This document shows, one piece after another, positions 26,154 through 57,108 of a stretch of DNA of 64,000 bases. The notes beneath the pieces were generated by a model. The model was not told the DNA's origin and ran no database searches. It saw only the letters and a program-made list of their open reading frames with translations. The first letter of the stretch is position 1. The number at the start of each line of letters is the position of its first letter. The stretch comes from a virus. A program made the translations under genes and the position numbers. The stretch spans positions 1 through 64,000 of IMG/VR virus record IMGVR_UViG_3300014613_000020; one strand, written 5' to 3'.

Positions 26154-26182
26154 TTGACAAGAAGCGAGTTTTGTGGTATACT
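26154..26182 (+). promoter_or_regulatory. sigma70 promoter
   Basis: TTGACA-17-TATACT. Confidence 0.75.
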
Positions 26183-26215: not shown

Positions 26216-26341
26216 TTCTCACGCCAATAGAACCCAACGCAAATACAAGCCCCTATTGGGTGTGAGCTCTTGGACGCTTTGCTGCGCGTTGGCAGCGATG
26301 AGAAAAAGGGTCACAAGGACTCACACCCAATGGGGTCTTTT
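26216..26341 (+). promoter_or_regulatory. structured leader RNA (long stem plus pseudoknot/alternative pairing), copy 1
   Basis: stem 26251-66/26320-35 followed by T-run; loop complementary to 26216-21 and 26234-40. Confidence 0.6.
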
Positions 26342-26390
26342 AGTCTGTAACTTTTGCACAAAAGGAGGGAATGAGAATGAAATAAGACCA

Positions 26391-26448
26391 TGTGTAGTGC
26401 TGTCAAGTGTTGTACTGTGGGGTCATGTGCGATAAATTAAGGTAAAAC
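26391..26448 (+). repeat. pentamer-phased unit 1 (DGY-NN x8-9 plus tail)
   Basis: tgtgt agtgc tgtca agtgt tgtac tgtgg ggtca tgtgc gataa attaaggtaa. Confidence 0.8.
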
Positions 26449-26472
26449 TCAATCAATGAAAGGAATGAAGAA

Positions 26473-27072
26473 ATGCCAGAAATTGCGGATGTCATAGTCA
26501 GTGGATTGATTTTCAAGAGTGTTACAATCCCAATAGTTAGCATAAGTGGATCGTCAATGATACAGAACAAAATGAGTGATAAAACAAAGGAGAGGATGCG
26601 TGGGAAGCAAACCGGGCAACCAAATTCCGGTCGACAACCAAAGGATATAGAGGCGCTCTATCTTGGTTCTTTGCACCCAAAGAATCCTGTGACAGGGAAT
26701 TATACCTTTCCTGGGTGGGGGTTCCAAAAGGCCATTACTGAGGCACCTAGATTCGACGACAACTTAAAAATGAATGCCATGCGGCAGTCAATCACTGTCG
26801 ATAGTGAGTACATTGACATTATTGGTGAACCACAAATGAGAGAAGACCTAGTGAAAATTGGAAGGGGGTCAGCCGATCTAGCCTATCGTGGTGAGTTTCT
26901 TAAGTGGTCTGCCGTTCTCCCCATCACCTACAATTCAGCAGCCATTAGTTTGGAACAGCTCGTTGGCCTTGTAAACATTGCTGGATGGTGTATTGGAGTA
27001 GGATCGTGGCGGCCTGGCAGTTCAGCGGGTGGCATGCATGGAAAATTTAGAATTGCAAGAGAGGGTGAGTAG
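26473..27072 (+). CDS. RAMP/Cas7-like protein (putative RNA-guided effector subunit)
   Basis: C-terminal Gly-rich loop GWCIGVGSWRPGSSAGGMHGKF; FPGWGFQKAI resembles the RAMP IPxxxxKG motif. Confidence 0.6.
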   Translation: MPEIADVIVSGLIFKSVTIPIVSISGSSMIQNKMSDKTKERMRGKQTGQPNSGRQPKDIEALYLGSLHPKNPVTGNYTFPGWGFQKAITEAPRFDDNLKMNAMRQSITVDSEYIDIIGEPQMREDLVKIGRGSADLAYRGEFLKWSAVLPITYNSAAISLEQLVGLVNIAGWCIGVGSWRPGSSAGGMHGKFRIAREGE

Positions 27073-27555
27073 ATGTCGCCAATCTATCGAATAAAACCAG
27101 GATGGTGCCCTGCCGACCCCAACAAAGCACAGGCTTATGGGGAACGAATAGAATATTTGGATACACTGAGTGAAGTCGGCTCTGCTTCAGTACGTGATGT
27201 CGTAAACGACGCTAAAGACCCGCAATCAATTCTACACGATGTCTTTGAATGGGATGATAGTGTGGCGGGTGAGAAGTACCGCCTGCAGCAAGCGCGACTT
27301 CTTTTGAACCATTTGGTAGTAGTAGTTAAGGACCAGGAAGTTGAGGAGGTTCGTGCCAGGTTTAGCGTTACCACTCCAAGTGGTGATAACGTCTATGCGG
27401 CCTTTCAGACTGTTCAGGACACGCCGGATTATCAACAACAGATTATCGACCAGGCCCTGAAGCAACTGAGAATCTGGCAAAAGAAGTACAGCATGTATCA
27501 GGTTCTGTCCGGTATCACATTGGCTATCGAAGAGGCACTATCTTCTTTGCCGTAG
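27073..27555 (+). CDS. phage protein coupled to RAMP-like gene
   Basis: starts immediately after previous stop; LHDVFEWDD..A.EKYRLQQAR motif. Confidence 0.65.
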   Translation: MSPIYRIKPGWCPADPNKAQAYGERIEYLDTLSEVGSASVRDVVNDAKDPQSILHDVFEWDDSVAGEKYRLQQARLLLNHLVVVVKDQEVEEVRARFSVTTPSGDNVYAAFQTVQDTPDYQQQIIDQALKQLRIWQKKYSMYQVLSGITLAIEEALSSLP

Positions 27556-27574
27556 CCGATTAAAATACAACTTA

Positions 27575-27871
27575 TGTCATGTGTGGTACTGTGCTGTAGT
27601 GCGGTGTTCGGTGATGTGTTGTTTGGTAAACTAAGGCAAGGGAACGACTCTTCTAGCAGACATCAAACTCTGTTAGAAGACTTCTTTCGGCAATGTGATG
27701 TTCGGTGTGGTGCTGTATTGTCTAGTGAGGTACAGTAAACTAAGGTAAGGGTTCGTTATCCCTAACAGACATCATACTCTGCTAGGGATACTTGTAGTAA
27801 TGATGTGGTGTCTGGTTTGGTTTAGTAATGCCTTGTTATGTCATGTGCTGTGCAGTAAACTAAGGTAAGGG
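27575..27871 (+). repeat. pentamer-phased array, units 2-4 with hairpin spacers
   Basis: 11, 10 and 11 DGY-NN pentamers, each ending ACTAAGGYAAGGG; 12-13 bp hairpins with loop CATCAWAC between units. Confidence 0.9.
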
Positions 27872-27876
27872 TAACA

Positions 27877-27936
27877 GAACTCTGCCACTCAATCAGGGAG
27901 TGTGAGACAAGCAGGTTCGAGTCCTGCCAGGGTTCA
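27877..27936 (+). ncRNA. tRNA-like element lacking anticodon arm
   Basis: GAACTCTG/CAGGGTTC 8-bp stem, CACTC/GAGTG hairpin, T-arm GCAGG-TTCGAGT-CCTGC. Confidence 0.65.
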
Positions 27937-27937
27937 T

Positions 27938-27966
27938 TTGACAAAAACATAGATTTGTGGTATAAT
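27938..27966 (+). promoter_or_regulatory. sigma70 promoter
   Basis: TTGACA-17-TATAAT. Confidence 0.8.
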
Positions 27967-27988
27967 TAAGGATATGAACAAATGGCAA

Positions 27989-28112
27989 CTTCTCGTGCCA
28001 AATTCAACCATAACAGCAAAGGCCCTATTAGGTATGGGTTTCTTGTTCCTTGTCGAGTTATGGCGACGCCGAGAAGAGGAGCATTAGAAATCCATACCTA
28101 ATGGGGTCTTTT
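27989..28112 (+). promoter_or_regulatory. structured leader RNA, copy 2
   Basis: same architecture as copy 1 with compensatory changes. Confidence 0.6.
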
Positions 28113-28119
28113 AGGCTAA

Positions 28120-28656
28120 ATGGAGAATTACTATATGGATAGTGAAGTAGAATACAAACCATTATGGTTGCAATCACGAAAGATGTTTTTTAGTGACCCA
28201 AGAATCCAAGAAACAAGACGAACAAAGAGACTGTGGAGCTACATAAAACTTCCTGAGCGACTGTTTGAGTCTAAATGCAATGGTTTATTAAAGATAATTG
28301 GTCCTGCCATGCTCGTGTACATGGACATACTTGCTCATGTTACAAGAGGGAACAAAAGCACATGGGGAGAGATTGGGCCACTATACCAAAAGGGCCTTCT
28401 TGTGACATTCAGAACACAAAGAAATATTGCTGATGATTTGGGAATACATCACACGCATGTGAATGGTTTGGTTAAAATCTTAAAGGAGTACAATTTTCTA
28501 ACAACTGATATTCGGCATTGGACAGGAACGAACGGTTCTCAACAGCATGGAACATTTTACTGTGTTGGATTTTGGGAATGGGATGACTCAGGAAAGATTA
28601 GGATAGAATATCCTTACAGCTACATCGCAGTACAGGATTGGGTCGATAGCCACTAA
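28120..28656 (+). CDS. HTH DNA-binding / replication-initiator-like protein
   Basis: TQRNIADDLGIHHTHVNGLVKILKEYNFL winged-HTH pattern. Confidence 0.6.
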   Translation: MENYYMDSEVEYKPLWLQSRKMFFSDPRIQETRRTKRLWSYIKLPERLFESKCNGLLKIIGPAMLVYMDILAHVTRGNKSTWGEIGPLYQKGLLVTFRTQRNIADDLGIHHTHVNGLVKILKEYNFLTTDIRHWTGTNGSQQHGTFYCVGFWEWDDSGKIRIEYPYSYIAVQDWVDSH

Positions 28657-30027: not shown

Positions 30028-30127
30028 TGCCTGGAAAGATGCTGTGGTGTGACAAGTGCAAGAAGTTCATTGTCCACATTTTTGATGGCAAGCTATGGAT
30101 ATGCCAGAGATGCGGGGGTGGAAAGAG

Positions 30128-31027
30128 ATGATACGAAGCTATCCGAAGATATACAATCTAGGTCACGCCGCCATAAAAGAGCTGTTCCTTGACGACGTGA
30201 TAGTAGAAGAGAAAATCGACGGGTCGCAAATTTCTTTCAGCCGGACCACAGAAGGTGAGTTGATGTGCCGCAGTAAGGGGAAGGACCAAAGTCCGGGCCA
30301 ACAGGACAAGATGTTTAACAAGGCCATAGAGACAATTCAGAGCATTCAGCATCTGCTAACTCCTGGGTGGACTTATCGTGGTGAGTACTTGCAAAACCCA
30401 AAGCACAACACCATCGCGTATGATAGGGTACCTGATAGACACATCATCATCTTTGACGTGGACGTGGGCATGGAAAGCTACATGTCTTATGAGATGAAGA
30501 GAGATGAGTCTCAGAGATTAGGATTGGAATGTGTTCCTGTACTGGCAGAGGGAATGTTCACAGACTATAATACATTTATGGAGTTGTTGGATACACCAAG
30601 TTGCCTTGGCGGGTCAACCATCGAAGGAGTTGTAATCAAGAACTATTCTCGGTGGGGGAGAGATAAAAAGGCGTTGATGGGAAAATATGTCTCTGAGAAG
30701 TTCAAGGAATCAAATAAATCGAATTGGACACCTAAGACCGGCAAGAGCATAATTCAAATCATCGGTGAGAGCCTACGGACAGAAGCGCGATGGAATAAGG
30801 CTATTCAGCATTTACGGGACAGTGGGGAACTTGTCAATGAACCAAAGGATATTGGCGGATTGATAAGAGAATTGCAGAGAGACGTGAAGGAAGAGTGTGA
30901 AGATGAGATAAAAGCAGCACTTTTTCAATGGGCGTGGAAGGATATATCTCGAATCGTTACATTTGGATTTCCGGAGCAATACAAACGACTACTCGCAGAG
31001 AGCCAATTTGAAAGAGAGAAATTATGA
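30128..31027 (+). CDS. RNA ligase (Rnl2-like nucleotidyltransferase)
   Basis: YPKI, EKIDGS (KxDG), FDV, EGVVIK, KY motifs. Confidence 0.8.
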   Translation: MIRSYPKIYNLGHAAIKELFLDDVIVEEKIDGSQISFSRTTEGELMCRSKGKDQSPGQQDKMFNKAIETIQSIQHLLTPGWTYRGEYLQNPKHNTIAYDRVPDRHIIIFDVDVGMESYMSYEMKRDESQRLGLECVPVLAEGMFTDYNTFMELLDTPSCLGGSTIEGVVIKNYSRWGRDKKALMGKYVSEKFKESNKSNWTPKTGKSIIQIIGESLRTEARWNKAIQHLRDSGELVNEPKDIGGLIRELQRDVKEECEDEIKAALFQWAWKDISRIVTFGFPEQYKRLLAESQFEREKL

Positions 31028-33659: not shown

Positions 33660-33826
33660 GTGAATGAGAGCAGAAGATAGAATGCTAGAAGCCATGATGT
33701 CTGAGAATCCATCGGGCAGGTTCAATTCCTGCCCATCCTGTTCGTGGGTGGATAGTACAGCGGCTAGTACTCCTGACTGTAACTCAGGCAACGATAGTTC
33801 GAGTCTATCTCCACCCATTGATGATA

Positions 33827-57037: not shown

Positions 57038-57108
57038 GTGGGGATAGGTTAGTGGCAAACTACCTGGATGTGGCCCAGGCGACCTGAGTTCGAGTCTCAG
57101 TCCTCACT
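57038..57108 (+). tRNA. tRNA-His(GTG), atypical
   Basis: cloverleaf: GTGGGGA/TCCTCAC, CCTGG-ATGTGGC-CCAGG, CTGAG-TTCGAGT-CTCAG; no encoded CCA. Confidence 0.8.

Follow-up and report, generated by a model that had tools for sequence, protein, structure and literature searches.

The genome of an uncultured 99-kb groundwater phage carries what we take, with a probability of about 0.9, to be the complete locus of a phage VIPR (Viral Interference Programmable Repeat) system. It lies within the window, by which we mean the whole stretch of 64,000 nucleotides that was analysed, and it is assigned to VIPR because a Vipr homologue stands beside the arrays, because the arrays have the pentamer anatomy of the family and because the operon is laid out like that of phage SUSP1. 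The five-base rhythm seen in this DNA was confirmed, and it corresponds to the four guide RNAs of a VIPR system, a kind of RNA-guided DNA silencer which is related to CRISPR and was first reported in 2026. Since the basic VIPR mechanism has already been published the finding is confirmatory, and its added interest resides in the covariation of RNA handle and protein pocket, which have changed together at this locus, and in the tRNA-like end of the operon. Moreover, it adds a complete VIPR locus from outside the bench-studied systems of Enterobacteria and Pseudomonas.

Vipr has been described as a RAMP protein present mostly in phages and prophages, and its vrRNAs as runs of 9-16 YNNGG repeats with a constant tail behind them (10.64898/2026.04.26.720920). 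Further marks of the family are an RRM core, a G-loop and a thumb in this small stand-alone protein, at least 4 pentamers per vrRNA gene, a structured form of the tail, a vap gene (vap1-6) beside vipr, and vrRNAs of about 100 nt which co-purify with Vipr. Pangenome matches, competitive binding and GFP repression are reported there as evidence that the NN dinucleotides pair with double-stranded DNA with a 1-nt skip, the skipped target base being mostly the wobble position of a codon (10.64898/2026.04.26.720920). The natural targets, called at an NN match of at least 80%, are satellites and prophages, rivals being silenced in this way, and no self-targets are described for the published systems (10.64898/2026.04.26.720920). 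By cryo-EM the Vipr protomers were seen to sequester each GGY and to present the NN (10.64898/2026.04.26.720927), and solo vrRNAs serving as decoys have been described as well (10.64898/2026.10.15.759431). The first-pass annotation of this DNA had proposed a guide of the form NNxNNx, with the skipped base at the wobble position and a resulting resistance to synonymous escape. This is the mechanism published for VIPR, and by analogy it would hold for the present locus as a member of that family.

Pentamer arrays of the four vrRNAs

Reading of the sequence and a script count gave four in-register pentamer arrays on the + strand, with 9-11 pentamers per array and 41 in all. The consensus across the 41 units is [U/G/A]-G-[U/C]-N-N. 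The first position is T in 24 units, G in 11 and A in 6 and is never C, the second is G in 40/41, and the third is a pyrimidine throughout (41/41; T 38, C 3), which as handle triplets gives TGT 22, GGT 9, AGT 6, TGC 2, GAT 1 and GGC 1. Positions 4 and 5 are near-random, with an entropy of 1.88 bits each over the same units. The last unit of every array (4/4) carries AA as its NN.

The first of the arrays, vrRNA1 or U1 (26391..26450, + strand), is found in the 5' leader of vipr and consists of 9 pentamers at 26391-26435, with the NN string GT GC CA GT AC GG CA GC AA, followed by a partial, shortened tail, AUUAAGGUAAAAC. The element vrRNA2 or U2 (27575..27680, +) has 11 pentamers at 27575-27629 (NN string CA GT AC GC AG GG TC GA GT TT AA), the tail AAACUAAGGCAAGGG at 27628-27642 and a hairpin of 12 bp with an 8-nt loop at 27649-27680. 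The element vrRNA3 or U3 (27689..27790, +) is built in the same manner, with 10 pentamers at 27689-27738 (AA GA TC GT GC AT CT GA AC AA), the tail AAACUAAGGUAAGGG at 27737-27751 and again a 12-bp hairpin with an 8-nt loop at 27757-27790. The letters of the outer stem differ between these two hairpins and the pairing is kept. Finally, vrRNA4 or U4 (27804..27871, +) has 11 pentamers at 27804-27858 (GG CT TT TT AA CT TA CA GC GC AA) and the tail AAACUAAGGUAAGGG at 27857-27871.

All four NN strings had been read correctly in the first-pass annotation (its Units 1, 2, 3 and 4 are U1, U2, U3 and U4), as both the sequence and the script confirmed, and the constant AA that it saw closing each unit is present in the four arrays. 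Its placing of Unit 1 inside 27575..27871 was mistaken, as this array sits 1.1 kb upstream, at 26391-26435, before the ORF 26473-27072.

The 15-nt tail AAACTAAGGYAAGGG follows U2, U3 and U4 exactly (starts at 27628, 27737 and 27857), and when up to two mismatches are allowed four matches are observed, a number equalled by 0/100 shuffles. Similarly, in the 98,979-bp virus genome four arrays in all, which are U1-U4, had at least 8/9 in-register [GTA]G[TC] triplets, and 0 were obtained in 30 first-order Markov shuffles. Tandem Repeats Finder reported no array because the pentamer units are too degenerate.

Vipr and its accessory protein

The vipr gene (26473..27072, + strand; phrog_4652) encodes a RAMP/Cas7-like protein of 199 aa. 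In a phmmer search against PDB sequences its product matched 36pp_D, the 'SUSP1 Vipr protein', at an E value of 0.0024, and a family profile of 67 sequences matched the same chain at 8.6e-15, the next match having an E value of 0.97. This alignment is nearly full length and joins profile positions 21-194 to chain residues 3-188. An exhaustive HMMER search yielded 2115 representative relatives of the vipr product at E <= 0.001, and no close relatives of the window's Vipr were found in the viral contigs by the related-locus search.

The AlphaFold2 model of the vipr product has a pLDDT of 95.7. In Foldseek this model is matched best by the Csm3/Cas7 subunits found in effector complexes of types III, VII and I, with 9ash_F at 4.1e-6 and 80 matches at E <= 0.001, and against the Cas7/Csm3 backbone the probability is 1.00 with TM scores of 0.40-0.53. 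The G-loop, GVGSWRPG, is RAMP-like and glycine-rich, and R139, W179 and R180 are conserved. The 199-aa ORF is a Vipr homologue with the Cas7/Csm3 fold. It shares this fold with the class 1 CRISPR backbone (Cas7/Csm3/Cmr4), in which a protein filament likewise forms on a guide RNA whose bases are periodically displaced, but the window has a period of 5 nt and a noncontiguous guide, of which three bases would be displaced in every unit. No CRISPR repeat-spacer array was found at the locus, and the 24 ORFs scanned from 13.7 to 41 kb contained no other Cas family.

The vap-like accessory gene (27073..27555, + strand; phrog_15946) encodes 160 aa and follows the vipr stop codon directly, without an intervening base. 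Its homologue is placed directly after vipr, in the same order, in mycobacteriophages (e.g. Quico gp57/gp58), and by BLASTP the protein shows no likeness to SUSP1 vap1. The AlphaFold2 model of the accessory protein is poor (pLDDT 55.5) and its structure matches in the Atlas are weak winged-helix-like leads with TM scores of 0.37-0.40.

Handle of the vrRNAs and the G1 pocket of Vipr

The handle of the window is dominated by UGU and has G at its first position (G1) in 11/41 units, so it departs from the canonical GGY of YNNGG repeats. Alternative repeats of the forms NNNGG, YNNNG and NNNNG are listed in the Methods of the VIPR report (10.64898/2026.04.26.720920). The present handle fits YNNNG, being Y-NN-N-G with G2 and Y3 fixed and G1 free, and it is thus a handle variant which does not exclude the locus from VIPR. 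Which VIPR type uses YNNNG, or which residues are changed with it, is not stated in the text and figure legends of 10.64898/2026.04.26.720920.

According to the published SUSP1 structure, G1 is read by H17 and D177 and G2 by R138 and W178, while R179 is among the readers of Y3 (10.64898/2026.04.26.720927). In the family alignment both G1 readers are replaced in the window Vipr (H17 by N32 and D177 by S178), whereas the contacts to G2 and Y3 are kept, R138, W178 and R179 corresponding to R139, W179 and R180. The loss of the G1 contacts together with the retention of the others in the protein mirrors the pattern in the handle RNA, and we infer that the first handle base is relaxed because both of the residues that read it were lost.

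The same association was seen in a covariation set of 10 loci, which are phylogenetically non-independent; an eleventh, Medea1, also with H, was dropped, its array being undetected within 2 kb. Where H occupies SUSP1 position 17, the first handle position is G-dominant in 7/7 loci (75-100% G), namely SUSP1 (40/53 units), Quico (37/38), UmaThurman (57/58), Trine (12/12), LittleE (55/60), Ecliptus (33/34) and MakoManhole (10/12). Where N occupies it, G is dominant in 0/3 loci (11-30% G), these being the window locus (11/41), the contig locus L046 (6/34) and phage phiHSIC (2/18), in which the handle looks like GCM and R138 is A. As this sample is small and its members are not phylogenetically independent, the covariation of handle and pocket is offered as a hypothesis only. 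Asparagine at SUSP1 position 17 is present in 21/76 aligned relatives, about a quarter of them, and 51 relatives carry histidine there.

Judging from these sequences, the loss of H17 and D177 may have shifted Vipr towards a (U>G>A)GU handle, with a tail of its own, AAACUAAGGYAAGGG, giving a VIPR with an orthogonal handle. Such a retuned handle could insulate the silencing machinery of the phage from the decoy 'solo' vrRNAs of rivals. If the H17/D177 substitutions set the specificity for the first base, the handle type would be predictable from the Vipr sequence alone, and orthogonal Vipr-vrRNA pairs could then be chosen for multiplexed silencing tools.

A separate observation concerns Listonella phage phiHSIC (L066, 2625-2890), whose arrays lie beside a Vipr homologue and have a GCA/GCC-NN handle. 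In its Vipr the positions of R138 and W178 are taken by A and F, respectively, pointing to another variant of handle and pocket.

Comparison with named systems

The locus resembles the type II VIPR of SUSP1 (PDB 36pp) in its order of promoter, one vrRNA, vipr, small accessory gene and three vrRNAs. For SUSP1 one vrRNA upstream and three downstream of vipr-vap1 have been reported (10.64898/2026.04.26.720920), and this layout was verified on inspection of the SUSP1 record. In addition, the arrays of 9-11 pentamers fall inside the published range of 9-16. The two systems differ in G1 (40/53 in SUSP1 against 11/41) and in the residues that face it (H17/D177 against N32/S178). They also differ in the tail, which in the window is AAACUAAGGYAAGGG followed by a hairpin, whereas the SUSP1 tails begin with GGGU(G/A)G and are described in the published text as a pseudoknot; inspection by eye and minimum-energy folds gave no SUSP1-like tail pseudoknot that holds in both vrRNA2 and vrRNA3. 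The likeness is lessened further by an accessory protein unrelated by BLASTP, by a low Vipr identity (single-sequence E value of 0.0024) and by an array with a tRNA-like end.

The closest named relatives are the pairs of Vipr and phrog_15946 proteins of mycobacteriophages (Quico gp57/gp58) and the Vipr of Gordonia phages, with an identity of 30-35% over 94-96% of the query for Vipr and of 25-27% for the accessory protein. The arrays of these actinophages have the canonical GGC/GGY-NN beside the gene, unlike the UGU of the window, and they are long, punctuated and placed upstream of vipr or within an annotated 'CDS'; the hosts are high-GC Actinobacteria. In Gordonia phage UmaThurman (L062, 2143-2466) and Mycobacterium phage Quico (L061, 1098-1340) long GGY/NN arrays adjoin the Vipr homologues. 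The UmaThurman array is annotated as a protein gene, gp40, which is probably misannotated vrRNA DNA.

When viral contigs were scanned for the tail motif, 59 loci came up, of which 57 were chance occurrences (0-4/10 in-register triplets). The remaining two, L028 and L046, are near-identical and have NGU/NN arrays and the tail GUAAACUAAGGUAAGGG beside a phrog_4652 gene. The phrog_4652 protein of L046 matched 36pp_D at 6e-8 (phmmer, PDB sequences). These loci share with the window an identical tail, phrog_4652 and N at SUSP1 position 17. On the other hand, the Vipr of L046 is 25% identical over 64 aa only, there is no adjacent accessory gene, the tail ends up 6 nt before the vipr start codon, and vipr is located between the terminase and portal genes. 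In the same contig (1-2205) an intein-like or HNH-containing insert seems to split the gene encoding the large terminase, and a separate HNH-type ORF is nested in another frame at 1401-2045.

Target searches and alternative explanations

In its own genome the phage has no site with an NN match of at least 80% at skips of 0-2, in agreement with the earlier remark that no self-target was visible, and a skip of 3 returned the arrays themselves only. Exact patterns with a 1-nt skip gave 0 matches for each of U2, U3 and U4 in the viral contigs and 1 for U1 (taken with a leading CA); in the metagenome contigs neither U2 nor U4 had a match, and the collection of species genomes gave a single match, to U4. 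A pattern of 20 fixed letters should occur by chance about once in 596 billion bases. The controls of U1 in the viral contigs gave 3 matches with the dinucleotide order reversed and 3 with a 2-nt skip. Thus the gapped-pattern search by which the first-pass annotation had proposed to check its guide reading, carried out for exact matches only, showed no enrichment over controls. The two target matches (one each in L064 and L065) were judged to be due to chance; in both, the skipped base falls on codon position 1 of a plausible ORF and not on the wobble position, and the contig of L064 is high in GC, with controls of 3 and 3. Since published targets are called at an NN match of at least 80%, exact scans are insensitive and the negative search does not refute the guide reading.

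The lack of a target in any of the collections scanned is also what would be seen if the arrays were vrRNA-like but some or all of them were decoys or relics, titrating the Vipr of a rival or having lost their targets, with vrRNA1 perhaps mainly regulating the translation of vipr. Solo vrRNA decoys have been described (10.64898/2026.10.15.759431), and vrRNA1 has 8 clean units, two GAY-type edge units and the shortened tail AUUAAGGUAAAAC. We consider this improbable. The downstream arrays are intact, with 10-11 units, an almost invariant G2 and Y3 and identical tails, vipr is intact and has conserved the residues of its G2 and Y3 pocket, and the target scans could see exact matches only.

A TRAP site consists of (G/U)AG triplets with spacers between them. 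The arrays, with 10-11 triplets and 2-nt spacers, resemble such a site in layout, one of them lies in the 5' leader of a gene, their tail is Shine-Dalgarno-like, and in L046 the same tail stands 6 nt before the ATG of vipr; the triplets might accordingly wrap a ring protein that regulates translation or is sequestered, and the NN would be meaningless spacers. This idea was dropped because the neighbouring gene matched the SUSP1 Vipr and is a Vipr homologue, and it now seems very improbable. The triplets are UGU, GGU and AGU and not GAG or UAG, no TRAP-like or other ring RNA-binding family was found among the 24 ORFs scanned from 13.7 to 41 kb, and the published structures show triplets bound so that the NN pair with DNA (10.64898/2026.04.26.720927).

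It is hardly credible that the period of five belongs to a coding sequence (the 54-aa ORF 27574-27738, which begins with ATG, overlaps U2-U3) or to repeats at the DNA level, for instance iterons or a packaging site (the L046 arrays lie between terminase and portal genes). The pattern occurs on the transcribed strand only and recurs beside Vipr genes in unrelated genomic contexts, and a period of 5 nt does not keep step with codons, for which reason ORF 27574-27738 was rejected as a gene.

The tRNA-like end of the operon

Returning to the VIPR reading, the last vrRNA is followed by a tRNA-like element without an anticodon arm (27877..27935, + strand), which ends 2 nt before the next promoter and occupies the end of the operon, at the point where one would look for a terminator. 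Its parts are an acceptor stem, a GG-containing D arm and a T arm of the form GCAGG-UUCGAGU-CCUGC. Its score against the Rfam tRNA family is 20.5 bits (E value of 0.8), under the gathering score of 29, and its minimum-energy fold is cloverleaf-like (-21.6 kcal/mol, z -1.59). ARAGORN did not call a tRNA at 27877-27935. At the 10 comparison VIPR loci Rfam gave no match at E <= 0.1, so the tRNA-like end is not common to them. Moreover, the word 'tRNA' has 0 occurrences in the main text of 10.64898/2026.04.26.720920, 10.64898/2026.04.26.720927 and 10.64898/2026.10.15.759431.

We propose, by inference, that the element is a signal for 3'-end processing or protection. The vrRNA array may be matured or capped at its 3' end by this tRNA-like module, which host RNase P or RNase Z would recognise. 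If it is a processing signal, it would represent a further way of cutting guide arrays beside the published arrays interspersed with hammerheads. The joint reading, which combines an orthogonal handle with its own tail, insulation from decoys and a tRNA-like maturation or capping recognised by RNase P or RNase Z, is tentative and, taken as a whole, rather unlikely.

The window also contains ordinary tRNAs for Tyr (33745-33818) and His (57038-57108). A gene encoding an RNA ligase (30095-31027; PF09414, E value of 3.4e-15) was found 2 kb downstream of the VIPR locus and near the tRNA genes, and it may serve in tRNA repair.

Operon layout, expression and promoters

The elements of the operon follow one another in the order promoter, leader hairpin, vrRNA1, vipr, accessory gene, vrRNA2-4 and tRNA-like element. 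All genes of the neighbourhood are on the + strand, with tail and virion-structural families upstream and replication genes downstream. The stretch 27400-28150 had no blastn match in 50,697 phage records.

The strong promoter at 26154 would drive a single operon through the tRNA-like end. If the system works as its homologues in SUSP1 and P. fulva do, each pentamer would be bound by a single Vipr protomer, which would bury the constant triplet [U>G>A]-G-[U>C] and present the variable pair of bases. With its 8-10 variable dinucleotides each RNA would then pair with double-stranded DNA of a rival mobile element, every third base of the target being skipped, and binding of the filament would repress transcription of the target. 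From the published family one would thus expect, at this locus, that a ribonucleoprotein forms, that one target base is skipped per step, that DNA is silenced and that the system takes part in conflicts between phages.

The DNA of the phage was found in three groundwater DNA runs besides the samples of two possible source runs. The contigs of run X3 are identical to the window, with 0 other letters. In run X6 the longer piece (151 nt, 27284-27434) is identical to the window as well, and the shorter one (33 nt, 27225-27257) differs in 3 letters, is flanked on both sides by unlike sequence and could stem from a different organism. Variant arrays were absent from the covered parts of the runs, both X6 pieces lying outside the arrays. 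One metatranscriptomic contig is identical to 27801-27929, which takes in vrRNA4 and the tRNA-like element, and is joined to a strand-switched piece; another is identical to 26919-27070, the 3' end of vipr. The two libraries belong to different studies. As these contigs are without RNA ends and DNA may contaminate RNA libraries, they give a weak hint that the VIPR locus is expressed.

The VIPR operon promoter (26154..26182, + strand) is TTGACA-17-TATACT with a TG extension and 11/12 hexamer matches. The next promoter (27938..27966, +) is TTGACA-17-TATAAT, with 12/12, and sets the downstream boundary of the VIPR unit. In total the genome has six near-identical extended promoters, that of VIPR included, of the form TTGACAAAA...TTTGTGNTATAAT followed by TAAG. 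They are located at 26154, 27938, 31704 and 47819 of the window and at 91964 (+) and 61299 (-) of the genome, and they look like a phage-specific class of early promoters.

The leader hairpin (26250..26343, + strand) is very stable, is followed by UCUUUUAG and is terminator- or attenuator-like. It folds at -54.9 kcal/mol (z -7.98), and 0/200 shuffles fold as well. A second copy, at 28022-28111, lies behind the next promoter (-54.2 kcal/mol, z about -8), and these two are the only copies in the whole genome. Both end in AAUGGGGUCUUUUAG, and a strong TG-extended promoter precedes each by about 65-85 nt. Between the copies the stems agree except for two paired changes from G-C to A-U, and the tops differ. 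They may act close to the promoters of early operons as attenuators, terminators or processing elements.
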